Positions 1 through 17,800 of a DNA stretch of 33,946 bases are shown here, piece after piece. Origin of the DNA: Bdellovibrionota bacterium (GTDB lineage: Bacteria; Bdellovibrionota_C; UBA2361); NCBI GenBank assembly GCA_044352465.1, contig JBILDU010000026.1:1-33946 (forward strand). The letters run 5' to 3'. The stretch's first letter is position 1, and each line of letters starts with the position of its first letter. The position numbers were made by a program, and so were the translations under genes. A model generated the notes under the pieces. The model was not told the DNA's origin. It searched no databases and saw nothing but the letters and a program-made list of their open reading frames with translations.

Positions 1-81
1 ACCGGTGAGACGATCCAGATTTCGGCGAAGAAGCGTGTTCGCTTCACCGCTGCGAAGGCTTTGAAGGACGCGGTCCTCTAA
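1..81 (+). CDS. hup: HU/IHF-family DNA-binding protein, 3' end (partial)
   Basis: Frame 1 reads TGETIQISAKKRVRFTAAKALKDAVL*, the typical HU C-terminal arm and helix. Confidence 0.9.
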   Translation, partial: TGETIQISAKKRVRFTAAKALKDAVL

Positions 82-123
82 GCTGGGTCGGTAAGAAGCG
101 ATGGGTTTCCCATCGCTGAAGAG

Positions 124-156
124 CGCCGGGGAGGGAAACCTCTCCGGCGTTTTTTT
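124..156 (+). terminator. Rho-independent terminator after HU
   Basis: CGCCGGGGAGG-GAAA-CCTCTCCGGCG stem (one G-U) followed by T7. A second perfect hairpin AGCGATGGG-TTT-CCCATCGCT lies at 97-117. Confidence 0.9.
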
Positions 157-403
157 ATCGAAAATTGCTGTAGGGCCGTGCGAGTTTTTCGTATCTCCCT
201 CGATTCACAACGACTTCACGTCCGCTCCTGGCGTTCCGTGTAGATGAATGAGCGCCGATTTGTGAAGTATCGCCCCGCTCCCGCCCGATACATAAACGCC
301 GGGCTACTCAGTGAGCTGCCGGTCATTCGGTGGTCTTCACGCGATTAAGAGACGGCCCGACGGGCTGGGGTTACTTTGGTTGATAAAAAAAGGGGTGGGG
401 TAT

Positions 404-745
404 ATGGCGGTTCTGGCGCTGCGGGAAAATGAGAATCCGTCTCGGGGGGAGAGTGCGCTTCTAGAGCTTCAGTATCGGCTCGCCGCACGTTCGCCGGTGA
501 GCGCCGAAGACATTCGCAGTGCGGTCGCGGCCGACGCTGCGGCGCTCCGGTCGATGAGCCTCGTCGTACTTACAAAGCTCCTCGACTCGACCGCCATCCC
601 ACTTGAGCACGCTGATATCACCGCGATAGGGGGGCTTATTCGCGATGAGATGGTGAAGCTCCCCCTCGCCGAGCCCGAACTGTTTCTCAATTACGCCCAG
701 GCGGCGGTTATCTGCGTCAAGAGCGCCAGCAAGCGAGATACCTAG
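404..745 (+). CDS. hypothetical protein (113 aa, helical)
   Basis: ATG at 404 preceded by G-rich AGGGGTGGGG. Protein-like composition, no motif recognised. Confidence 0.6.
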   Translation: MAVLALRENENPSRGESALLELQYRLAARSPVSAEDIRSAVAADAAALRSMSLVVLTKLLDSTAIPLEHADITAIGGLIRDEMVKLPLAEPELFLNYAQAAVICVKSASKRDT

Positions 746-1256
746 AGCACGAAACATAGAGTTGTTCACCCGGGCTCTTCTTCGCGTTGCGTCAGGTGCC
801 TGCGCTTCGCTCCGGTGCCCGGGCTGCCGGGCAGCCACTGGTAGCGTGCTAGTACGTGGCAACTAGCTATGTTGCTGAGATGATGAGTTTATGAGAGAGA
901 ATGTCATCGGCATCGCCCCGCTTTGAGAACACCAGGGCGGTATCGGCGTTCAGCCCCCAGTGATTCCCTGGGTTAACCGCGCGGCTCGCACCGCCGAAGC
1001 TCCCCAAGTCCGTTGATGCCTACCGTCGTGTTCCTAGCTCCTACGCCTGGCTTATCCACTCGTATGCCCGGGAAGCTGCATGGCTCCAAACTCCGGGGTG
1101 ATACTTCGCTTATCAAAACAACTCGATCGAGCGAGGGAGTTGCCACGCACCAACATTTGGGGATGTCGCGCCATAAAGGCGCGCCGGAGCGTAAACCCGA
1201 TTGGTGCTCGTCCGCCGAACGTGGGTAGAATCGGGGGCAAGCGGAGTGGGGGAGCG

Positions 1257-1853
1257 ATGACTCAACGAGTGACGATCGGTTGGTGGTTACGGGTGTTTGC
1301 GGTCTGTGCGATTTTTGGGGCAGCGACGGCGGGTGGGGCGGAGCCGGCACCACCGGTGTGCCGCGATGAATTCTGCTTCGCCGCAGAGGCCGATGTCGTT
1401 GGTATGCCCTTAACACTGCGGGGGGTGAGCACCTTTCGATATTGGGGCTTTCGGGTCTATACCGGGGCTTTGTACCTGCCGACGACGGAGACATCAGCAG
1501 CGGCGGTTCTGGGGGAGACACCTAAGAAGCTCGTGCTCAGATACCATCGCAATGTGTCGGTCGATCAATTTGTGGAGAAGTCCGAGGAGGTCCTCGAAGA
1601 ACATCCTCAGTTCTCACCCGAGAAGATCCGTCCGTTTCTAAGCCGCATCAATGCGCTCTATGAGCCGGTGGAGAAAGGGGATGCCTACGCGATCACCTAC
1701 GACCCCATACCAGGAACGCTGAGCCTGTTCTTCAACGAACGACTGTTGGGCCAGATCCGCGATCGCGACTTTGCGCGAGCCTATTTCGGTATTTGGGTGT
1801 CCGATTATTCGGTGAGTAAGAGGTTCACCGACGAGTTGTTAGGCCGGGGGTGA
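1257..1853 (+). CDS. secreted chalcone-isomerase-like (Chalcone_3-type) protein
   Basis: GGAG before ATG 1257, signal peptide, LTLRGVSTFRYWGFRVYTGALY, VEKGD, FARAYFGIW and terminal LLG are characteristic of this family. Confidence 0.85.
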   Translation: MTQRVTIGWWLRVFAVCAIFGAATAGGAEPAPPVCRDEFCFAAEADVVGMPLTLRGVSTFRYWGFRVYTGALYLPTTETSAAAVLGETPKKLVLRYHRNVSVDQFVEKSEEVLEEHPQFSPEKIRPFLSRINALYEPVEKGDAYAITYDPIPGTLSLFFNERLLGQIRDRDFARAYFGIWVSDYSVSKRFTDELLGRG

Positions 1854-2043
1854 CGCGCGCCCTCTCCGGACGTGGTCAAAGGTTGCCCCCTGGAACAGCA
1901 GAATTGGAGATCTGCCGTCGATCTTTTGGGGTATGTCTCCAGGTTGGCGATGGGAGTTCGCCGTTAGATCTCTAGCTCGGTAGAAGCTAACAAGCCGCAG
2001 ATAGGACGCAACTCCCGCCTGCACATCGAGGAGTTCCAGGAGG

Positions 2044-2073
2044 TTGTTTAGGATCTCGAGGTCGGGGTAAAAT
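2044..2073 (+). promoter_or_regulatory. possible sigma70-type promoter upstream of the cassette
   Basis: TTGTTT (2044-2049), 18-bp spacer, TAAAAT (2068-2073). Confidence 0.35.
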
Positions 2074-2109
2074 CATGTGCCGAACTGGGGATCAATACTG
2101 TTAGGCCTC

Positions 2110-2565
2110 ATGGACAGTTCCTCGATCGCTCACCATATAACCGGCACATTTGCCGGCATTTATCCTCTATCCGCTTGGGGTGAGACTTCATTCTTCTACA
2201 ACCCTGGTCGCAAGCTACCTCGAGGCATCTACTTCGCTACGGTCAAGGACAAGGATGGAGACAATGACCGTGCATCCAACCTTCACCGCCCGGGCGTATT
2301 CCGCTTGAACTTTGGCATCAGCAAGCCCACCTATCGCTCTCTGTTCGGGCCGCCACCAGTACGGCCTCCCGCTGGTGGCGTCGTCGATACTGGGCATGAT
2401 TTTGCTACCTTGGATCAGCTCCTGCCCCACCCTGTGTATGGCTGGATGTCATGGGTTTGTGTCCTCAACCCCAGTGCCAGAACATTTAATACTGTCGAGC
2501 CGCTGCTGGCCGAAGCCTATGATCTGGCTGTCTCCAAGTTTGCCAAAAGGGCTTCGTGCGGCTGA
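2110..2565 (+). CDS. DUF6194-like hypothetical protein (cassette ORF)
   Basis: SAWGETSFFYNPG, YFATVKDKDGDNDRASNL, GVFRLNFGI and LLPHPVYGWMSWVCVLNPS match my recollection of DUF6194. Confidence 0.8.
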   Translation: MDSSSIAHHITGTFAGIYPLSAWGETSFFYNPGRKLPRGIYFATVKDKDGDNDRASNLHRPGVFRLNFGISKPTYRSLFGPPPVRPPAGGVVDTGHDFATLDQLLPHPVYGWMSWVCVLNPSARTFNTVEPLLAEAYDLAVSKFAKRASCG

Positions 2566-2566
2566 T

Positions 2567-2611
2567 GCCTCACATATCAGTCGAAAAGCTGTCGCGCCGA
2601 AGCATTTGATT
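2567..2611 (+). other. attC site, left half (R'', L'' and stem)
   Basis: GCCTCAC (R'', one change from GCCTAAC), 5-bp spacer ATATC, 8-nt L'' AGTCGAAA, then stem AGCTGTCGCGCC. Confidence 0.75.
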
Positions 2612-2719
2612 GTAACCGTCCACCCTCACCCGTCCTAGCGGATCTCCTCGACATCTGATCGAAGTGGTGCGTGAGCGAAGTGCTGCTTCCAGAGCCTCGG
2701 GGTGAGGGTGGACGGTTAC
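2612..2719. repeat. 108-bp unit with perfect 20-bp inverted repeats (MITE-like IS66 mini-element)
   Basis: GTAACCGTCCACCCTCACCC at 2612-2631 and its exact reverse complement at 2700-2719. Confidence 0.85.
2635..2706 (-). pseudogene. tnpC: IS66 TnpC transposase C-terminal remnant (23 codons)
   Basis: Minus strand reads LTPRLWKQHFAHAPLRSDVEEIR*, a recognisable IS66 TnpC C-terminus, with the stop 3 bp from the 20-bp terminal repeat. Confidence 0.75.
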
Positions 2720-2805
2720 GGCTTAGAGGCCCTCTGACCGTACGAAATGGCATTTTCCCGGAGAAGCACTAGAGATTTGTGCAGGCTCACTGAGGTCATC
2801 CTTAA

Positions 2806-2829
2806 GTACGGCTGGGGTTGGACGCTTAC
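2806..2829. mobile_element. additional isolated IS66 terminal repeat
   Basis: Reverse complement GTAAGCGTCCAACCCCAGCCGTAC, 19/24 identical to the end at 2612 and starting with the classic GTAAGCG. Confidence 0.7.
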
Positions 2830-2954
2830 GGGAAGGGCACCCCGCTGATCGTCGCCGCGGCCTCCCACCCTGTCAGAGCGCTAAGTGCGGTTACACGAGA
2901 GCCCAGGAGCACGTGTTCCCAGCGGTACGCTCACATGTGGCTTCCGAGCAGGCT

Positions 2955-3635
2955 TTAGTACGACCGTAGCTCACGACCACTTTCGATGGTAACCGACACC
3001 GACGAGCCTTTAGTCTGGATGCAACATTTGCCCTTGCAACCTGCTGTGCACCAGTTACCGCTCGTTGTGCATCCCCCGTTCTCTGAGATATCCCCTTCGA
3101 TCTTGCCACCAGCTTTTTCGCAAGCCTCTTTCAAGTTCGATTTACAAACTTGGTATGCGACGTCACAACTCGGGTCACCGAAGTCACCACCACCTCCGCA
3201 ATTAAGCGGAGTTTTGGGCTCCTTTCCCACAGCGGTCATCTCCGAACACGGATCTTTGCAATAGCATTTGTCGCCAGCCGGGTCGTACGTGCACTTCTTA
3301 TTTCCATTACAGGTCCCGCCGCACTGCGGCGCAGTAGCAGTGGGACAGGTCTCGGCGGGAGGTGGAGGAAGGGGATTGCACTTACAATAATTCGAATCAG
3401 TTGGGTGAACACCGCAGGTGGTACCCGCGGGACAGGTGCCGTTGCACTGACCATTTTCTTTCTTACAGGTCCACTGCCCCGGCTGATTGAGGCACTCACG
3501 TGGGAGAAGCTCCTTGTCTCCGCTCAAGATAGCCTCCTCAAGAAGGGTGGAGCAGTTCGCAACCTCGGGCTGCGCAAATGAGCTGCTGCTGCAGACGAAT
3601 ATCGCGACGAAACCGAGGACGACTTTTTTTAACAT
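2955..3635 (-). CDS. secreted cysteine-rich repeat protein (226 aa)
   Basis: Sec signal MLKKVVLGFVAIFVCSSSSFA, 24 Cys in the mature part, two tandem 6-Cys modules joined by a poly-Pro linker. Confidence 0.85.
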   Translation of the reverse strand: MLKKVVLGFVAIFVCSSSSFAQPEVANCSTLLEEAILSGDKELLPRECLNQPGQWTCKKENGQCNGTCPAGTTCGVHPTDSNYCKCNPLPPPPAETCPTATAPQCGGTCNGNKKCTYDPAGDKCYCKDPCSEMTAVGKEPKTPLNCGGGGDFGDPSCDVAYQVCKSNLKEACEKAGGKIEGDISENGGCTTSGNWCTAGCKGKCCIQTKGSSVSVTIESGRELRSY

Positions 3636-3983
3636 TCTTTACCCCGAAACACTGTTACCCGCTTGCCAGTATAGCTCATCGGATTGGGTCAACCAATCCA
3701 AAAACATCGCTCAACACAACGGAGTCGGTCGAGCCCTTCGTATGCTCGATCGATGAAGATCTCATAGTAAAAACAGACGATTAGTCGAGCCACGCGGTCA
3801 GGCTAGTAGGGTTAAAGTTCACCCACTCTCCCCAGGAACTCAAGCCTAGTTGCGATCGAGAAACTCCATTTATCTCTCTGATTTCCTTCGCGGTGATAGA
3901 GATTTCTCCGCCCCGCACCACGACTAAGAGCAACTTCTCCTTGAAACTCCCATAACACCTAAGAGTTTTGGGGATCGGGTTTT

Positions 3984-4511
3984 ATGCAGATTTCAGGCTT
4001 TCGGCCGCTCGCGGTAGCGGCTTTTCTGGCGCTTATGTCGCCCGCCGTAGCCTGGGGGACGTGCGAAACTGTGCCGAGTGCCGTTGCCGGTACCGAGCAG
4101 ATCCGGTGCGAGTCGGGTGTTGAGTTTAAGATCGTTGCCGCTCGTGTGGATGAACCCGCCGTCGCGAAAATGAAACTGCCCGGACCGTTCGGCACAATGG
4201 AGTTCACCGCGGCCTATGTTCGTCCAGGGGAGCTCGTTCGACTTGTTGGGGTTCAAAAAGGCGCGCGGGGGCCCGCCACACCAAAGCTCTACGCATTCCT
4301 CAAAGGCAATACCGTTCGCTGGATAACCTTGGTACAGACAACTGAAGGTGGAGCAACACGAACCGAGATTCGGCACAATTTAACCGGCGTCACCCGGGTG
4401 GAGCGCATACAGGGCGCGCTCGATCTCCCGGCCCCCACGAATCTCCGACTCATTGAACACCGTGTTGAGGCACCTCTCCCGGAGGCGGTCTATACGCGCC
4501 TGGGGCTGTAG
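3984..4511 (+). CDS. putative secreted hypothetical protein (175 aa)
   Basis: Signal-peptide-like N-terminus (RPLAVAAFLALMSPAVAWG), beta-strand-like sequence pattern, Cys pair near the mature N-terminus. Confidence 0.7.
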   Translation: MQISGFRPLAVAAFLALMSPAVAWGTCETVPSAVAGTEQIRCESGVEFKIVAARVDEPAVAKMKLPGPFGTMEFTAAYVRPGELVRLVGVQKGARGPATPKLYAFLKGNTVRWITLVQTTEGGATRTEIRHNLTGVTRVERIQGALDLPAPTNLRLIEHRVEAPLPEAVYTRLGL

Positions 4512-4531
4512 ACTAACGGCGTAGTGAAAGC

Positions 4532-4870
4532 TTAACCGGTATCGATGAGCCACATCGTTGATTGTTTCATGCCGACACCCTCAAACCCAAATCCACAAAT
4601 TATTGAAGCGAGTTCACGTCGCCCATCGGCGCAGCGTACTTCGAATCTTCCCCGTTCAAGGTGTTTCGCAAACACGCACCATCCGGTTCGATCCCAGAAT
4701 ACTCCCTTGAGGAGTTTACGGCGGCGGTTCACAAAGACGTAAAAATCTCCCGTCAATGGATCGGCATCCAGATGCGCTTTTACCGCTGCTACCAGTCCAT
4801 CAAACGAGCACCGCATATCGATCGGCTCGCCGTACGCAAAGATCTTCTTCGGTTCTCCCCGCCACCACAT
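4532..4870 (-). CDS. tnpB: IS66 family accessory protein TnpB (Orf2)
   Basis: PIDMRCSFDGL, DPLTGDFYVFVNRRR, WDRTGWCVFAKHLERGRF. ATG overlaps the tnpA stop (TGATG). C-terminus looks diverged. Confidence 0.9.
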   Translation of the reverse strand: MWWRGEPKKIFAYGEPIDMRCSFDGLVAAVKAHLDADPLTGDFYVFVNRRRKLLKGVFWDRTGWCVFAKHLERGRFEVRCADGRRELASIICGFGFEGVGMKQSTMWLIDTG

Positions 4871-5121
4871 CACTCACTCCGTACTCGAAGGGCCGTACCG
4901 TCTGGGAACACGAACTCGAGGGTCGTTTTCGTCCGGGTGGGTGGGGTGACCTCTGAAAACGCTCCGGTAAGCCGTTCCTGTTGAAGCTAGTATTGGAGTG
5001 TCGAGACCGAGACACCGGCGCCTTCACAAAAAGCGCGCTGCGTCTCCCCGCTCGCTCGGTACCGGGTAAGCATGGCTCACCGCCGGTCAGGGATTAATCG
5101 GTTCCTTCGCTCCTCGCTCAT
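4870..5121 (-). pseudogene. tnpA: IS66 family TnpA (HTH) with two in-frame stops
   Basis: MSEERRNRLIPDRR*AMLTRYRASGETQRAFCEGAGVSVSTLQY*LQQERL...LEFVFPDGTALRVRSE*. Stops at 5077-5079 and 4987-4989, the second at the conserved YW tryptophan. AGGAGG upstream. Confidence 0.85.
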
Positions 5122-5210
5122 AGTCCTCCTTAAAAGCTATCGGAGGGACTTCTCGCATGGGCGGTAGGGGCGCGGGAAGAACGGTGCGGGATGGGCGGTT
5201 ACACTTGATT

Positions 5211-5256
5211 TGATCATGTTCGAATTGGTACGACACTTTTCGCTGAAGCGTTATCG
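5211..5256 (+). other. attC site, right half (stem, L', R')
   Basis: GGTACGACACT, 7-nt L' TTTCGCT (5238-5244), 5-bp spacer GAAGC, GTT core at 5250. Reverse complement TCAGCGAAAAGTGTCGTACC pairs with 2577-2598 leaving two extra bases. Confidence 0.75.
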
Positions 5257-5423
5257 CTTGCGGAAGTTTCTATAGCCTTGGCTCCGCGAGAGGTGAATCT
5301 CATGGTCATTTGAGCAACACGACCAGTTGCCGCCTACCAGCATTCGAGCCGTATTGGCATCGCCACGATCGCATCGGAAGCCTTCCGCGAATCCTTGCTC
5401 ACGAAGGAGGCATCTAAATCCAA

Positions 5424-6233
5424 ATGGATATTCCCCCGGAGAACTCCTCCCCCTTTGGAAACGGCGTCATACGCCCAACAGCGCCTTTCCAATTCCAGGT
5501 GGTTGACTACGTTCCACAGCTCCGTCTTGGACTTCGGCTCGAGTGTGACCCGACTAATTTCATCGATCGCTACATCCTCGCAAACGGAATCTGGGAACCC
5601 CTCGTGTTGAGCGCGCTACATGCGCTCGTGAAGCCGGGAGACGTCTGTGTCGACGTTGGTGCGAACGCCGGCTACCTCTCGCTCGTCATGGCGGGGCTGG
5701 TCGGCGCTGCGGGTAAGGTTCTCTCGTTCGAACCGAATCGAGCGATCGTACCCAAATTTAGGAGAAATCTCGAGTTGAATCCAAGCCTACAGTCGAGGAT
5801 CGAGCTCCACACTACGGGACTTGGGCGAGAGGCTACTACTATGTTTCTTGCGCCCGACGAGAGCGAGATCGTGGGGAACGCGAGCCTCGTATCCTTGGCT
5901 GGAGCGATAACGACCGAATCCATCAGAGTGGAAACGCTCGACTCGCATCACCTCACGCGGGTTGACTGTATGAAGATCGATGTGGAAGGTATGGAGCTCG
6001 ATGTATTGATGGGGGCATCAAAGACCATCGCTGTATCGAGACCGGTCATCGTGTTCGAAACGTTACGAGCGCGGCCCCCCGAGCATCATCTCGTCGTGGC
6101 CAACTACCTGCGGGAGTTCGGCTACGGCATCTATTCCGTTGATTTTGAGGGGAAAAAATTTAAGCCGATAACGACCGCTCTGTTTCCCCAAGAGGACACC
6201 TACGCGATCCATCCAGCTCGGTTCAAACTATAA
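5424..6233 (+). CDS. FkbM family methyltransferase
   Basis: VDVGANAGYLS, VLSFEPN, MKIDVEGMELDVLMGA, RPVIVFE. AAGGAGG upstream. Confidence 0.92.
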   Translation: MDIPPENSSPFGNGVIRPTAPFQFQVVDYVPQLRLGLRLECDPTNFIDRYILANGIWEPLVLSALHALVKPGDVCVDVGANAGYLSLVMAGLVGAAGKVLSFEPNRAIVPKFRRNLELNPSLQSRIELHTTGLGREATTMFLAPDESEIVGNASLVSLAGAITTESIRVETLDSHHLTRVDCMKIDVEGMELDVLMGASKTIAVSRPVIVFETLRARPPEHHLVVANYLREFGYGIYSVDFEGKKFKPITTALFPQEDTYAIHPARFKL

Positions 6234-6334
6234 ACCGTTGAGGGGGAGCGGGGCATGCCTCGGCGCATGATCCCCACAGATTTGTCCTCTCGGGCTATAT
6301 TCTTTGTGGCGTCGCTTCCACCAAGTGCTCGAGC

Positions 6335-8527
6335 CTACGCCAAATTCTCCACCATAATCTCCGCGATGTCGCGCACCTCAAGGGCACCTTCGCGGTTCGT
6401 GAGTTTTACCCCGTCCTCGAGCATCTGCATGCAGAAGGGGCAGGCGGTGGCGATCCGGTTTGAGCCGGTTTCGGCGGCTTGGTCGACCCGGAGGGCGTTT
6501 ACCCGCTGACCTTTCTTCATATCCATGAAGAAGTGTCCGCCGCCTGCGCCGCAGCACATGCCTTTTTCGCGGCTTCGATCCATCTCGAGGATCGGGAGCC
6601 CCGTAGCGCGCCGCACGGTATCGCGGGGCGCTTCGTATTCGTTGTTGTAGCGGCCGAGATAACACGGGTCGTGCATCGTGTAGGTTTTCTCTGAATTGGG
6701 TTTCAGCGCGATCTTCTCTTCAGCCACGAGTCGCTTGAGGAGCACTGAGTGGTGGATGATCTCAGGACTCTTGCCTTCGCCGAGATTCCCAAAGTCGGGG
6801 TAGTCGTTTTTGATCGAGTTAAAGCAGTGAGGGCAGTTTGCGACGAGGGTCTGAAACCGGATCGATTTCAACGTCTCGATGTTTGATTTCGCGAGGGTCT
6901 GAAAAAGGTTCTCTTCCCCGAGTCGGCGCGCTGGATCGCCGGTGCACCCTTCCGCGGTGCCAAGAATCCCAAACGAAAGCCCCGCTTTGTTCATCAACGT
7001 CACCAGAGCACGGGCGATCTTTTGCTTTCTCGGATCAAATGCGGAGACGCAGCCGACCCAGTAGAGGTAGTCAACCGAATCGCCGGGCTTAAGGATCTTT
7101 ACGTTCAGCTCCTCGAGCCACTTAATCCGATCTTCTGGTGCACCGTACGGATTCCCCCGATTCTCAAGCGCCCGGAGCGTTGGTTGAGCCTCTGCAGGGA
7201 TCTCGCCCCGCATGAGCGCCATGTTACGCCGGTTTCCTACGATCATGCTGACATGGTCGATGCCCACCGGGCATACCTCCACACACGCCATACAGGTGGT
7301 GCAAGCCCAGAAGACATCGGGGTCCATCACATCGCCGGCGACTGTATCGTCAGCGGAACGACCGAGCACCCGCGGGGTCTCACGCACGAGCTCGTTTGCA
7401 CCCCGGTACGCTCCGTTAACGGAGTAACCCTCCGTGGCTTTTTCAACCCCACTCGAGGGAAGGAAAAAATCAAGGGTAAGAGCTTTGTCCACTGCTCGCA
7501 GGGGAGGGGGCAGTTTCGATGGGGCGAGTTTGCCCTCCGCAGCGAGAGCAAGGGCGTGATTCCGGGTATCGAGTACCATCCACTTCGGCGAGAGCGGCTT
7601 TCCGGAGATATATGCCGGGCAGTTATCTTGGCACCGACCACAACTTGTACATGCATCGAGGTCGAGGAGTTGTTTCCAGGTATAGTCTTTTATCGATCCA
7701 AGCCCGAGTGAAAACTCTTCGCCCGATTCCATCATCTTCTCAAGGTCGCCCGGTGACTGAAGCTGCGCCTTGCCACGGCCGGAGTCCCTGAAGTACAGGT
7801 TCGCTGAACTCGCCACGATGTGAAAGAACTTGGTGTACGGTGCGATCGCGATAACCGTGAAGACGGTGATCGTGTGGAACCACCATGTGAGGAAGTGGAG
7901 AAGTTTCGTACTCTCGGGGGAGAGTGCCCAGAAAAATTTGGCAAAGAGAAGTCCGACCGGGGACCAGAGGCGCCACGGGTCGTTTGTTGCGTGGATCCGC
8001 AAACCCTCGAGCACGAATCCTTGGACGCATAGGAGTACCAAAACGGTGAGCCCGAAAATCTCAGACGGGCGGCGATGCACGAGATCGGCCTTGGCGATGT
8101 AGCGTCGGTGAGCGAAAAGAGCACATCCGATAATCAGCCCAAGTCCAAAGAGGTCACTCAGGAGTGTGACGATGAGGTAGAAGTTACCCTCGTAGATCCG
8201 AATACCTAAGTCGTGGTCGATAAAGACCATCGTCGTCGTAAAAAGGAGGACTAAGAATCCAACGTAGATCAGGGTATGTGCTGCTGCCGGCAGGGGCTCG
8301 CGGACGGTGCCCCGTTGGAAAAGGCCGTGGGTGAAGAGGCTTTGAAATCGTTCAAGCCATCTCCCGGTGCGTTCCGGCGCGGGGCGACCGGAGGCCCAAA
8401 GCTCTGCGTGGCGAAAGACTCCCGCAAATCCGATGATGAGAGCGACCACCATCAGGGAATACATCACGACGACGTTCCCGAGGCTGCTCACGTTCCACAT
8501 GATCTCCCTTGTCGCCACTCCGCTCAT
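6335..8527 (-). CDS. membrane-bound Fe-S oxidoreductase (FadF/HdrD-like: TM domain, two 4Fe-4S motifs, two CCG domains)
   Basis: CTSCGRCQDNCP, CTTCMACVEVCP, WVGC, GCTGDPARRLG, CPHC, HDPCYLGR, CCGAGGG, ACPFC. Start placed at ATG 8527 behind GAAGGA. Confidence 0.9.
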   Translation of the reverse strand: MSGVATREIMWNVSSLGNVVVMYSLMVVALIIGFAGVFRHAELWASGRPAPERTGRWLERFQSLFTHGLFQRGTVREPLPAAAHTLIYVGFLVLLFTTTMVFIDHDLGIRIYEGNFYLIVTLLSDLFGLGLIIGCALFAHRRYIAKADLVHRRPSEIFGLTVLVLLCVQGFVLEGLRIHATNDPWRLWSPVGLLFAKFFWALSPESTKLLHFLTWWFHTITVFTVIAIAPYTKFFHIVASSANLYFRDSGRGKAQLQSPGDLEKMMESGEEFSLGLGSIKDYTWKQLLDLDACTSCGRCQDNCPAYISGKPLSPKWMVLDTRNHALALAAEGKLAPSKLPPPLRAVDKALTLDFFLPSSGVEKATEGYSVNGAYRGANELVRETPRVLGRSADDTVAGDVMDPDVFWACTTCMACVEVCPVGIDHVSMIVGNRRNMALMRGEIPAEAQPTLRALENRGNPYGAPEDRIKWLEELNVKILKPGDSVDYLYWVGCVSAFDPRKQKIARALVTLMNKAGLSFGILGTAEGCTGDPARRLGEENLFQTLAKSNIETLKSIRFQTLVANCPHCFNSIKNDYPDFGNLGEGKSPEIIHHSVLLKRLVAEEKIALKPNSEKTYTMHDPCYLGRYNNEYEAPRDTVRRATGLPILEMDRSREKGMCCGAGGGHFFMDMKKGQRVNALRVDQAAETGSNRIATACPFCMQMLEDGVKLTNREGALEVRDIAEIMVENLA

Positions 8528-8908: not shown

Positions 8909-10321
8909 ATGGGTAGTGAACCTCCTCAAGTCCTTCTTATCGTTTTCGGCGTGAGCCTCGTTGCGGCGTACGTTTTTTTTGCGGCCGTGGCGGTTGTTAT
9001 TACCCGCAGCCGGACAAAAAGGCTTGACGAGCTCGTTGAGGCGAATCGCTTCGGAGCGGCCTCGGCAGCGTCGATAGCCCATAACGCCGATAGATATTTG
9101 CTGGTAACTCAATTCGGTAGCTTCCTTTCGGTCCTCCTTCTCGGTGGAGTCGGTCTCCAGTTCTGGCGCGAGGAGGTCTTCACCGATGGGCTTGCTTTAA
9201 GCGGGCTCCTTGAGATCGTCCTTAAGAGCGGCATCGTTGCCTCGGCCCTGGTGCTGACCCTCGGGGTTGCCCAGATAGCCAAGGCGTTTGCGTTTGCTCA
9301 CCCTGAATCGATCCTGTGCGCTCTGGCCCTCCCCATTCGAGCTTGGTCGACGTTCTCCCGCCCCGTAGCCTTTCTCCTCGTGGGTGGGCTCACGAAAGTG
9401 CTTCGTTTCCTAAAAGTCGATGCCCCTGCGGAACGTGAGTTCGGCGTCTCCGCCGATGAGATTAGTGAAATGGTCGAGCTCAGCAGTGAGGCGGGGGAGA
9501 TCGAAGAGGACGAGCGGGAGATGATCCAGAGTGTCATCACCCTCTCTGATACCGTTGTGCGTGAAGTCATGACTCCTCGCACCGATATCGTGGCGGTAAC
9601 CGGTGAGATGAGCCTCGATGAGGTTGTTGGGGTATTCGTGAAAGAGGGCCTGTCTCGTCTGCTGGTTATCGGGGATGAACTCGATGATGTGCAGGGAGTT
9701 TTGATTGCGAAGGACTTGATGCCCCTCGTGGGGAAGAGCGATCCGAAGTTCGATTTCTCCCGACTTGTTCGCCCGGTATTCTTTGTCCTGAACAACAAAA
9801 AAGTTGACGAGCTTCTCGCGGAATTCAAGCGGGAGGCGGTGCATTTCGCTGTTGTCCTCGACGAGCACGGTGGAGTGGATGGCCTAGTGACGGTCGAAGA
9901 TCTGCTCGAAGAGATCGTGGGTGATATCTTCGACGAACACGATGTCCCCGCCGACGAGCTCGATGTCGTCAGAACGAAGTCAGGTGATCTTTTAGTCTTA
10001 GGGAGCGCCCTTATTGAGGAGCTTAATCAGAGCCACGGGTTTGGATTCCCCACTGGGGAATACGACACGATTGCTGGTTTTGTCATCCACCATCTGGGCC
10101 GGATTCCGAGCGTCGGCGAGATTATAGAGGTTGATGGGGTACGGATTCGGGTCGAAGAGATAGCCCACAATCGGGTTATTCGCCTCCGCGTTATGTTCCG
10201 TAAGGCCTCAAAACAAATGAAGAAAGGTGCCGGTGTCGAAGCTGTCTCCGGTGGCGTCGCTGCTTTGTCGGATAAAAACGAGCTGATCGACGAACCTACT
10301 CGAATCGTCTTACCGCGCTGA
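8909..10321 (+). CDS. hemolysin-family CNNM (DUF21)-CBS-CorC Mg2+/Co2+ homeostasis protein
   Basis: N-terminal TM helices, VREVMTPRTDI, AVVLDEHGGVDGLVTVEDLLEEIVGDIFDE, YDTIAGFV. Confidence 0.92.
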   Translation: MGSEPPQVLLIVFGVSLVAAYVFFAAVAVVITRSRTKRLDELVEANRFGAASAASIAHNADRYLLVTQFGSFLSVLLLGGVGLQFWREEVFTDGLALSGLLEIVLKSGIVASALVLTLGVAQIAKAFAFAHPESILCALALPIRAWSTFSRPVAFLLVGGLTKVLRFLKVDAPAEREFGVSADEISEMVELSSEAGEIEEDEREMIQSVITLSDTVVREVMTPRTDIVAVTGEMSLDEVVGVFVKEGLSRLLVIGDELDDVQGVLIAKDLMPLVGKSDPKFDFSRLVRPVFFVLNNKKVDELLAEFKREAVHFAVVLDEHGGVDGLVTVEDLLEEIVGDIFDEHDVPADELDVVRTKSGDLLVLGSALIEELNQSHGFGFPTGEYDTIAGFVIHHLGRIPSVGEIIEVDGVRIRVEEIAHNRVIRLRVMFRKASKQMKKGAGVEAVSGGVAALSDKNELIDEPTRIVLPR

Positions 10322-10520
10322 TTCATCTACAGCAATACGGACTGGTGTCGCTCCCTCTAGAACGGGGGCGTTCCTAACCTTCTCTTTCCTTTAAGGAAGT
10401 TCCGCTGGGTGTTGGGCGGCGTGGGCTTCGGGGGTCTCGAAAGCAGTTGGATTCGAGTCGCTTCAGTTGGAAGGAGGGCTCGTGTTTTTTGCGAGCGCTG
10501 TTTGAATCTTTGAAGTCTCT

Positions 10521-14818: not shown

Positions 14819-17800
14819 ATGTCGAATCAGTTCGTTCACCTTCACCTGCACACTCAATATAGCCTTCTCGACGGCGCAAATAAGATACCCGACGTGCTTG
14901 AGCAGGCGCATAGGATGGGGCAGCCGGCGATCGCGATGACCGATCACGGCAACCTGCACGGGGCGATCGAGTTTTTCTCCGAGGCGAAAAAAATTGGGAT
15001 TAAGCCGATCCTCGGGTGTGAATTGTACGTCACGCCGACCTCACGGTTCGAGCGTAAGACGAAGGCGCAAGGGGGAGGGGGAACCCACCACATCACGGTT
15101 CTCGCGCAGAACCTCGAGGGTTATCACAACCTTTGTCGGCTCTCGAGTCTGGCGTTCAAGGAGGGGTTCTATTTTAAGCCGCGGGTCGATCACGAGTTGC
15201 TCGAGCGATATTCCGAAGGACTGGTGGTTCTCAGTGGGTGTTTAAACGGGGAGCTCGCGTCGGCGCTCAAATACGATGATCTCAAAGCCGCGCGTCAGGT
15301 CATCGAGTTCTATGCACTGAACTTCAAAGACCGTTTCTATCTCGAGGTGCAGCCCCACCCCATTCCGGAGCAGCGGAAGCTCAACCAAGGTTGCGTCGAG
15401 TTCGCCAAATCGATGGGCATACCTCTTGTCGCCACGACCGATTGTCACTACTCCGGCAAGGACGACCACTATGCTCAAGAGGTGCTCATGTGTGTCTCGA
15501 CGGGGAAGCAGGTCACTGACCCCGATCGATTGCGCCACGAGGGGGTGAATCTGCACCTTAAATCGTACGACGAGATGCTGGCTGAATTCGGAGATGTGTC
15601 CTACGCCGAGGAAGCGCTCCGCAATGCGCTCGCTATCGGCGAGACGTGTAACGTGAAGTTTGAGTTCAAGACCCACTTCATGCCCCAATTCGAAAGTGAT
15701 GGGCGACCGCTGATCGAGATGATGGCGGAGCGCGCCCGCGAGGGGTTGGTGCAGCGACTCGAGATTATCGCCGAGCAAACCCCGGACTGGAGCCCGGCGA
15801 AGAAGAAGGTATACGAGGATCGCCTCGAAGAGGAGATTCGGCTCATCGATAGGATGGGATTCGCGGGGTATTTCCTCGTGGTGTCCGACTTTATCGTGTG
15901 GGCGAAGAGCAACGGCGTGCCGGTGGGGCCGGGGCGGGGAAGTGCGGCGGGTTCGCTCGTGGCCTATGCGATGCGCATTACCGATATCGAGCCGATCGCC
16001 AACAAGTTGCTCTTCGAGCGGTTCTTGAATCCGGAGCGTGTCTCACTTCCCGATATCGACGTTGATTTCTGTATTAATGGTCGCGATCGAGTGGTGAAGT
16101 ACGTCGTCGAGAAGTACGGCAAGGAGAAAGTTGCACAGATCGCGACCTTCGGGACGTTGAAGGCTAAGGCGGCGATTAAAGACGTCGGTCGGGCTCTCGG
16201 GCTGAGTTACGCCGAGACCGATAAGGTCGCTCAGTTGGTGCCAGCTCCGCGGCAGGGTTTCGACTTTAGTCTTCCCGAGGCCCTCAAGATGGAGCCCCGC
16301 CTCGCCGAGTATGCGGCGAACGAGGGACGGGAGCTCATCGAGCTAGCTCAGAAGCTTGAGGGGCTTACTCGGCACACCTCGACCCACGCAGCGGGTGTCG
16401 TCATCGGTGATCGACCGTTAGTGGATCTCCTTCCCATGATGGTCGATAAGGACGGCAACGATGTGACCCAATACTCGATGAGCTACGTCGAGAAGATCGG
16501 GCTCGTGAAGTTCGACTTCCTGGGGCTCAAGACGCTCACCGTTATCCATACGGCGTTGCGGATCATCAAAGAAAGTCGGGGGATTGAGCTCAATCTGGAG
16601 ACTTTACCGCTCGGCGACTCGAAGACCTACGCGATCTTGTGCGCGGGGAATACGACCGGTGTTTTTCAGCTTGAATCCTCCGGTATCACCGAGATGACGA
16701 TGCGGCTGAAGCCCAACTGCTTTGATGATCTTGTCGCTATCTTGGCGCTTTATCGGCCGGGACCGCTCGATGCGGGGATGGTGGATCATTACATCGAACG
16801 CAAACACGGGCGACAGCCGGTCCAGTACCTTCATCCTTTGATGAAGAACTCCCTGTCGGACACCTATGGCATCATCCTCTATCAAGAGCAGATCATGCAG
16901 TTGGCGCGTGAGCTCGCGGGGTATTCGCTCGGCGAAGCAGACCTCCTTCGAAAAGCGATGGGTAAAAAGATCCCTGAGGAGATGGCGAAGCAACACGACC
17001 GTTTCGTTCAGGGTGCGGTGGAGCGGAAGATCGACAAACCCCTAGCGGAGGAGATCTTTAGCCAGATGGAGACGTTCGCACGGTACGGCTTCAATCGTTC
17101 TCACTCGGCTGCGTATGCGTTAGTTTCTTTTCAGACCGCCTATCTCAAAGCCCACTACGGGGTCGAATTCATGGCGGCGCTGATGTCGCACGAGATGGAG
17201 GATAGCGACAAGACCCTCAAGAACCTCAACGAGTGCCGGAAGCAAGGTATCGCGGTCCTTCCCCCCGATGTGAACATCAGTCTCGCCGGGTTCTCGGTCC
17301 ACGATGGAAAGGTCCGTTACGGGCTTGAAGCGGTCAAAGGAATCGGTGAAAAGGCGGTGCTCGCTGCGATCGCGGCGCGAGAGAAGGCACTGTTTACCGA
17401 TCTTGAGGACTTTTTGACCCGGGTTGATCTCCATGCCGTTAATCGGCGAGTGCTTGAAAGTCTTATCAAGTGTGGCGCTTTTGACTTCGCCGGGTTTTCA
17501 AGGCGAGAGCTCATTGATCGGCTCGAGGATGCTCTTGCCGCGGCGCAGTCGCTCCAACGAGAAAAAGATACCAATCAGATCTCTCTTTTCGGGGCGAGTT
17601 CCGTGGTATCGACCGTTCCCCGTCGTTCAACGAATCGACCGGAATGGCCGGTGAACCAGAAGCTGGCCTTTGAGCGAGAGGCGCTCGGGTTCTACATCTC
17701 TGGTCACCCCCTTGAAAAATTTAAGCTCGAGATTCGGAAGCTCGGTGCTATATCGGTGGCAGACGTGCGGGCAAAGACCCACCAATCGCAGGCGCGGGTG

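Follow-up and report, generated by a model that had tools for sequence, protein, structure and literature searches.

A 33,946-bp contig from the draft genome of a Bdellovibrionota bacterium – contig C124, analysed over its whole length and referred to here as the window – contains a derivative of the insertion sequence (IS) family IS66 in which two genes for putative exported proteins occupy the place of the transposase gene tnpC. We favour, with middling confidence, the explanation that this element is a fossil: a non-autonomous, compound ('tIS66-like') IS66 element that entered the site as a single unit and has since decayed. Passenger-carrying IS66 elements are a known kind, of which we regard the present one as a decayed member; a report on Pseudomonas elements describes tIS66 as IS66 insertion sequences with passenger genes, and assigns seven of the 25 Pseudomonas IS66 entries in ISfinder to them (PMC12888890). 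The draft genome is 3.13 Mb long in 170 contigs, with a completeness of 94.9% and a GC content of 0.573, and the metagenome runs containing window DNA are from lake and freshwater samples.

The element is described on the minus strand unless stated otherwise, and would consist of three pieces: a left arm, in which the left inverted repeat (IRL) is followed by a dead tnpA and a tnpB truncated at its 3' end; a 1.9-kb stretch of ordinary DNA that carries the two genes for secreted proteins (the cargo); and a right arm of IS66 end remnants, namely a lone terminus at 2829 together with a mini-element of 108 bp that holds a further terminus, the tail of tnpC and the right inverted repeat (IRR). From the left end to the right, the features are:

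5203..5210, no strand: flanking 8-mer ACTTGATT, adjoining the left end; one copy of the target duplication
5179..5202, minus: IRL, GTAACCGCCCATCCCGCACCGTTC, with two substitutions private to this copy
4870..5121, minus: tnpA pseudogene with two nonsense codons
4532..4873, minus: tnpB open reading frame (ORF), 113 aa, IS66-derived only at 4605-4873
3984..4511, plus: cargo gene 2 (ORF175), a 175-aa orphan with signal-like N-terminus MQISGFRPLAVAAFLALMSPAVAWG, convergent with tnpB
2955..3635, minus: cargo gene 1, a 226-aa cysteine-rich protein with signal-like N-terminus MLKKVVLGFVAIFVCSSSSFAQP
2806..2829, minus: third left-type IS66 terminus, GTAAGCGTCCAACCCCAGCCGTAC, 19/24 identical to IRR by our own count
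2612..2719, minus: mini-element of 108 bp with perfect 20-nt inverted repeats, comprising an extra left-type terminus (2700-2719), the tnpC tail and IRR
2635..2706, minus: last 23 codons of tnpC and stop (LTPRLWKQHFAHAPLRSDVEEIR*), matching the C-terminus of TnpC of relatives
2612..2635, minus: IRR, reading inward GTAACCGTCCACCCTCACCCGTCC
2604..2611, no strand: flanking 8-mer ATTTGATT, adjoining the right end; the other copy of the target duplication

The left end starts at 5202 with GTAACCGCCCATCCCGCACCG and the right end stops at 2612 with ...GGGTGAGGGTGGACGGTTAC, giving a total length of 2591 bp. Terminal inverted repeats of IS66 elements are about 20-30 bp long and start with GTAA, as do both ends here. 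IRL and IRR are identical at 17 of 24 positions (our own count); the first 14 nt of IRR are those of other IS66 ends in the same genome and in a same-genus genome, and alignment with other copies places both private substitutions of IRL within its first 12 nt. The two flanking 8-mers agree at seven of eight positions, and 8 bp is the target duplication tabulated for IS66 members in PMC3281130. By our own arithmetic, agreement at seven or more of eight positions in a fixed register is expected by chance with a probability of 25/65536 (~4e-4), or ~1e-3 for AT-rich flanks, and still <1e-2 if three possible end pairs are allowed. Because of this duplication we regard the termini at 5202 and 2612 as having been used together, and very likely they bounded a single DDE-type insertion, with duplication of 8 bp at the target. 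A first-pass annotation had recognised an IS66 derivative with both ends and a 7/8 flanking duplication, and this stands; it had also remarked that the length of 2591 bp comes close to that of an intact IS66. Intact relatives measure 2221-2377 bp where both ends could be paired (7 of the 16 loci examined), and the likeness in length is therefore a coincidence.

Within the left arm, tnpA was correctly called a pseudogene: it has an in-frame TGA at 5079-5077 (codon 15) and TAG at 4989-4987 (codon 45), where the other four of the five aligned copies have CGA and TGG. An intact tnpA paralogue on contig C153 of the same genome passes the NCBIfam model for IS66 TnpA (NF047593; E 2.1e-8, 34.6 bits against a cut-off of 28). 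The tnpB ORF matches PF05717 (E 7.9e-24) and NF033819 (E 1.2e-22), in both cases along no more than positions 2-84 of the 101 in the model. Over 4605-5202 the element shares 95% identity with a copy in the same-genus genome G001, and the homology ends there, so that tnpB is 3'-truncated and its final 23 codons are unrelated sequence; the presence of tnpB, claimed earlier, is upheld, and the gene is not intact, its 3' end being replaced from 4604 onward. Both IS66 accessory genes are therefore present, though one carries two nonsense codons, and the internal breakpoint between the left arm and non-IS DNA lies at 4604/4605.

The right arm holds what is left of tnpC. The 'last 23 codons' of the earlier description are exact, as 2706-2635 matches the C-termini of intact TnpC frames: an intact TnpC from a same-class genome has the C-terminus ...LTPRLWKQHFAAVPLRSAIDH, that of an intact 566-aa frame from a same-class genome is HLLTPRLWKQHFAAVPLRSAIDH, and others end DLTPIRWKELFAHQPLKSHLEMQ and DLTPLRWKELFAQKTMRSDLD. 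Relatives share the order of tnpC stop codon, short spacer and GGACGGTTAC, and GGACG(G/C)TTAC follows their TnpC ends at a distance of 10-60 nt. These 23 codons are all that remains of the DDE transposase (PF03050), for which there is no match in the contig, and the element is a derivative and not a functional member of the IS66 family.

Two further IS66 termini, absent from the earlier account, lie inside the right arm. The sequence at 2700-2719 is an inverted copy of 2612-2631, identical at 20/20 positions, and because the interior of the terminus at 2719 faces the tnpC tail, 2612-2719 constitutes a two-ended mini-element. A miniature inverted-repeat transposable element (MITE) is short and non-coding, with terminal inverted repeats, a target duplication of its own and multiple copies; the present unit is 108 bp long and ends in perfect 20-nt repeats, and has neither matching 8-bp flanks of its own nor a second full copy in the genome. 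The intact right ends of relatives contain no comparable internal repeat, their best exact inverted repeat being 0-6 nt. The first 14 nt of the other inner terminus, at 2829 (GTAAGCGTCCAACC...), recur at either end of an IS66 contig of 2354 bp that belongs to a same-class genome. Exact matches to GTAASCGYCCA number four in the window, all within the element: three are on the minus strand, at 5202, 2829 and 2719, and one, at 2612, is on the plus strand; the chance expectation in 2.6 kb is about 0.006 by our own arithmetic, and genome-wide there are 10 matches against 7.1 expected from base composition. With these two termini in it, the interior is no clean replacement, and what they indicate is that the element has a compound or nested history and is not a simple cassette.

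No parent element for this right arm was found when right-end DNA was searched in 91 genomes of the order, or when the exact 20-mer of the inverted repeat was searched in a genome contig collection. Partial relatives of the right end in the same genome are a 97-bp remnant at 72% identity on contig C19 and a solo repeat on C26. The C19 remnant (10246-10342, matching window 2612-2708) is solitary, keeps about 33 codons of the tnpC end and directly follows an ORF for a 526-aa membrane protein; IS66 end remnants also occur at C26 11907-12188 and C153 ~5540-5720, and after them come short, GC-rich repeats of hairpin type, probably REP-like, with the form GTAGCCCCGGTACAGGGG. A match to the inner repeat on contig C212 of G001 lies within an ordinary coding region and was set aside as chance. 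We also considered that the perfect 20-nt repeat arose by template-switch extension of a native hairpin, and dropped this origin: there is no tnpC homology upstream of 2719, and relatives lack the hairpin.

Between the arms, the non-IS stretch 4604-2720 is 1885 bp long, correcting the 'about 1.8 kb' first given. The absence of tnpC from it is borne out, in that tblastn with TnpC pieces from the same-genus copy and from contig C85 of the same genome found nothing significant. Its description as carrying two passenger genes for secreted proteins holds insofar as there are two non-IS ORFs with signal-like N-termini – assigned by eye – and required correction for the second, which is on the plus strand and not the minus. 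The cargo looks native, with a GC content of 0.552 (genome 0.573) and codon scores highest in the annotated frames: -0.008 versus -0.24 and -0.45 for the 226-aa ORF, and 0.178 versus -0.23 and -0.25 for the 175-aa ORF.

Neither cargo ORF matches Pfam (E<=0.01) or PADLOC, and NCBIfam returned for each a single sub-threshold row (E 0.088 and 11.9 bits against a 517-bit cut-off for the 226-aa ORF; E 0.053, far under the curated cut-off, for the 175-aa ORF). A word-seeded search of 5.8 billion proteins with both proteins gave self matches only. A HMMER search of 1.84 billion representatives, which covered the cysteine-rich protein only, recovered three remote homologues at 49% (E 1.2e-34), 41% (E 2.8e-16) and 40% (E 1.4e-7) identity; 19 of the 29 invariant columns are cysteines. 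The protein therefore belongs to a real, small family, of which a search of genome and metagenome contigs with the alignment found no further relative. ORF175 is an orphan: it matched only itself both in the word-seeded search and among 124 phylum genomes, and has no relative in metagenome contigs. Structural models offered no clue to function: that of ORF175 from AlphaFold is all-beta with a mean pLDDT of 54.5, too poor for a fold search, and that of the cysteine-rich protein (pLDDT 62.5) has no Foldseek match at E<=1e-3 and a best VIA Z of 7.2, at background level, to generic small alpha/beta domains. An Atlas search for cargo function gave only chance-level leads, to LolA-like proteins (score 0.80). 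The two are thus described as putative small exported proteins, one of them rich in potentially disulfide-forming cysteines.

The structure was compared with Logan contigs of four lake metagenome runs (X2, X8, X9 and X11); whether or not X2 is itself the source sample, the other three are separate runs. An X2 contig spans 605-2931 with two differences, crossing the right junction, the tnpC tail and both inner termini, and another (5131-5627) crosses the left junction; contigs of X8 (4203-4678) and X9 (4393-4627) cross the 4604/4605 break. With the two junctions and the break at 4604/4605 all bridged by contigs of these three runs, the structure is no artefact of assembly. Among the assembled contigs of the four runs there is no empty site, deletion form, cargo-free form or alternative joint; such a contig-level comparison demonstrates presence and not absence, and where bins of X8, X9 and X11 are uncovered, the cause is low depth, so that they carry no evidence. 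In X11, two contigs begin matching exactly at 2612 behind a different flank, and one matches to ~2705 and then continues as tnpC-like coding sequence (...THPISDVDL before TPRLWK, in our own translation of 30 letters). That lake community therefore contains an IS66 whose right end is at least 95% alike and which has another flank and more of tnpC.

The only part of the element to be repeated elsewhere in the same genome is 4605-5202, which has six further copies at 87-92% identity. A search of that genome for the intact parent IS66 proposed earlier thus returned only truncated left-arm copies and no full-length tnpC, PF03050 having five partial matches at three loci. Copies of this type – on contigs C150, C4, C153, C137 and C149 of the same genome and on C85 of G001 – are each broken on the right side at a different point or by the contig end, and none of them has a cognate right end attached; in the G001 copy the end of tnpC is missing as well. 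Metagenome-derived drafts tend to lose intact repeated IS copies, and since these are the likeliest to be missing, the lack of a full-length tnpC in the draft is weak evidence of its absence.

Nesting and truncation are extensive among the IS66 copies of this genome. On C150 (3763-7227), two inverted IS66 left arms bracket an ORF of 499 aa with a signal-like N-terminus and no Pfam family (4485-5981, minus strand); the second arm contains a 394-aa open frame in which TnpB (PF05717) is joined in frame to the first half of the DDE domain (PF03050 positions 2-156 of 284), and the contig ends inside this arm. On C85 of the same genome (~15440-17270), a C-terminal fragment of tnpC lies between two small ORFs of 175 and 196 aa with signal-like N-termini and no Pfam family.

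In the history that we favour, a once-complete IS66 would have used its own left end together with a right end belonging to an IS66 mini-element close by, and the intervening DNA with both genes would have been carried along in that transposition. A later deletion starting inside tnpB would have removed tnpC, and point mutations would then have struck tnpA, IRL and one base of the duplication. Movement as a unit with its cargo accounts for the inner termini because they sit at the right edge of the cargo and face the right end. It would also parallel the origin proposed for ISPa75, a tIS66 carrying fosZ whose IRL and IRR come from different IS66 lineages; the authors of that report read the mixed ends as capture between two IS66 ends (PMC12888890). 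Today the element is incapable of moving itself, and with a supplied transposase it would probably move poorly.

Several observations weigh against this history. Published tIS66 elements carry their passenger between an intact tnpC and IRR; here tnpC is gone and its former presence has to be inferred. Neither an inner IRR nor a remnant of the tnpC body was detected in 4604-2720. Neither inner terminus (2719 or 2829) has an 8-bp flank matching that beyond 2612, so the mini-element alone lacks matching flanks. No second copy of the element, the cargo or the cargo junctions was found in the same genome, the 124 phylum genomes, or the protein and contig collections, the latter covering genomes and metagenomes; the cargo is in one of the 124 – its own genome, in single copy – and has no second copy at the DNA level in 31 relatives. 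The nearest (same-genus) relative, G001, lacks the whole of 157-6334, and hence no relative offers an empty or ancestral site. Finally, in situ remodelling of a plain IS66 after its insertion fits the duplication equally well.

This last alternative, which we consider possible and rather unlikely, supposes that a plain, complete IS66 inserted and made the duplication, that an IS66 mini-element and another IS66 later landed inside it, and that recombination between two tnpC tails together with deletions or replacements gutted the interior and imported the 1.9 kb, so that the cargo never transposed. The duplication proves only that the two outer ends moved together once, nested termini are present, and truncation of the right side at differing points in every copy seen suggests that deletion inside these elements is common here. 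Nonetheless, an extra, unspecified event is needed to bring in 1.9 kb of non-IS DNA, the cargo is not enclosed by the inner termini, both of which have their interiors toward the right end, and no strain with an intact IS66 at this site was found in the four runs, the only ones compared.

The first-pass annotation itself proposed a mobile-insertion-cassette-like element, mobilised at present in trans by a TnpC encoded elsewhere and spreading genes for secreted proteins. It suggested looking for the same cargo pair between IS66 ends at other loci, and none was found: the element is single-copy everywhere searched. The draft, at 95% completeness, has no full-length tnpC, the two private IRL substitutions and the mismatch in the duplication suggest an old and inactive insertion, and joints of an empty site or of excision were absent from the four runs. 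The element nevertheless has its duplication and both of its ends, the helper may simply be unassembled for the reason given above, and the right end from X11 with more of tnpC comes from the same lake community; on balance we judge present-day mobilisation improbable. That a truncated left arm and unrelated right-end debris merely flank two native genes, with a fortuitous 7/8 match, agrees with the native composition of the cargo and with other left arms (C4 and C153) that adjoin ordinary genes with no right end nearby, and is highly improbable given a match at the very register expected for IS66 and the chance values calculated above.

The element sits between a DUF6194 gene and an FkbM-type methyltransferase gene, in a region of 6.2 kb (window 157-6334) that is missing in G001 and also includes an ORF of unknown function and a chalcone-isomerase-like gene; window positions 1-156 and 6335 onward are only 77 bp apart there. 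At the G001 junction the terminator after an HU-like gene is 77 bp from the end of an Fe-S oxidoreductase gene, and no flanking repeats were seen. The DUF6194 gene (2077-2565) has a patchy, accessory-like distribution, occurring in three of the 124 phylum genomes among unrelated neighbours, and its product has an 82%-identical counterpart in G069, a genome of another family. The DUF6194 loci of G069 and G074 were considered as empty sites and rejected, as they share nothing beyond this gene. An Rfam scan of window 1-7000 gave no match, and a scan for promoters and terminators gave chance-level hits only.

The element resembles tIS66 in its ends starting GTAA(G/C)CGTCC, its target duplication, its tnpA and tnpB, and the presence of genes without a role in transposition between the ends. 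It differs in that tIS66 have an intact DDE transposase with the passenger downstream, and ISPa75 is multi-copy with ten different duplications (PMC12888890); the present element is single-copy and lacks the complete tnpA-tnpB-tnpC set followed by a passenger before IRR, having a dead tnpA, a truncated tnpB and 23 codons of tnpC, with the cargo between the latter two. It also shares with compound transposons and MITE-flanked units the presence of ordinary DNA between two IS-derived pieces whose outer ends were used together, and differs from them in that one arm is a 108-bp mini-element and the other a truncated IS, in direct orientation and sharing one functional-looking right end. Mobile insertion cassettes, the transposase-less analogue in the IS231 group, are clean, occur in several copies and have had their mobilisation demonstrated. 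One of them, the IS231-derived MIC231 of Bacillus cereus, is cited in PMC3281130. As in MIC231, IS-type inverted repeats bracket passengers without a transposase, and any movement would need transposase in trans; the present element belongs to another IS family, retains dead IS genes and extra inner termini, is single-copy with neither multiple sites nor mobilisation in trans seen, and has a mobility that is only putative. No description of an IS66-derived cassette without a transposase was found in the searched literature.

Three IS66-remnant loci of this genome – in the window, on C150 and on C85 – adjoin or surround signal-peptide-like ORFs without a Pfam family, and on C150 two inverted left arms bracket one. 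One might speculate, though we consider it improbable, that in this uncultured freshwater Bdellovibrionota lineage orphan genes that evolve fast and encode exported proteins are captured and shuffled time and again by IS66 ends, which would thereby diversify the secretome of a predator. As it stands, the element is a fairly ordinary fossil among known cargo-carrying elements, well documented and useful for annotation of the locus, and settles no open question. If the cargo did travel inside IS66 ends, passenger-carrying IS66 elements would extend beyond the resistance genes of Pseudomonas to orphan exported proteins of an uncultured predatory lineage, and this element would provide a worked example of how they decay into transposase-less cassettes.

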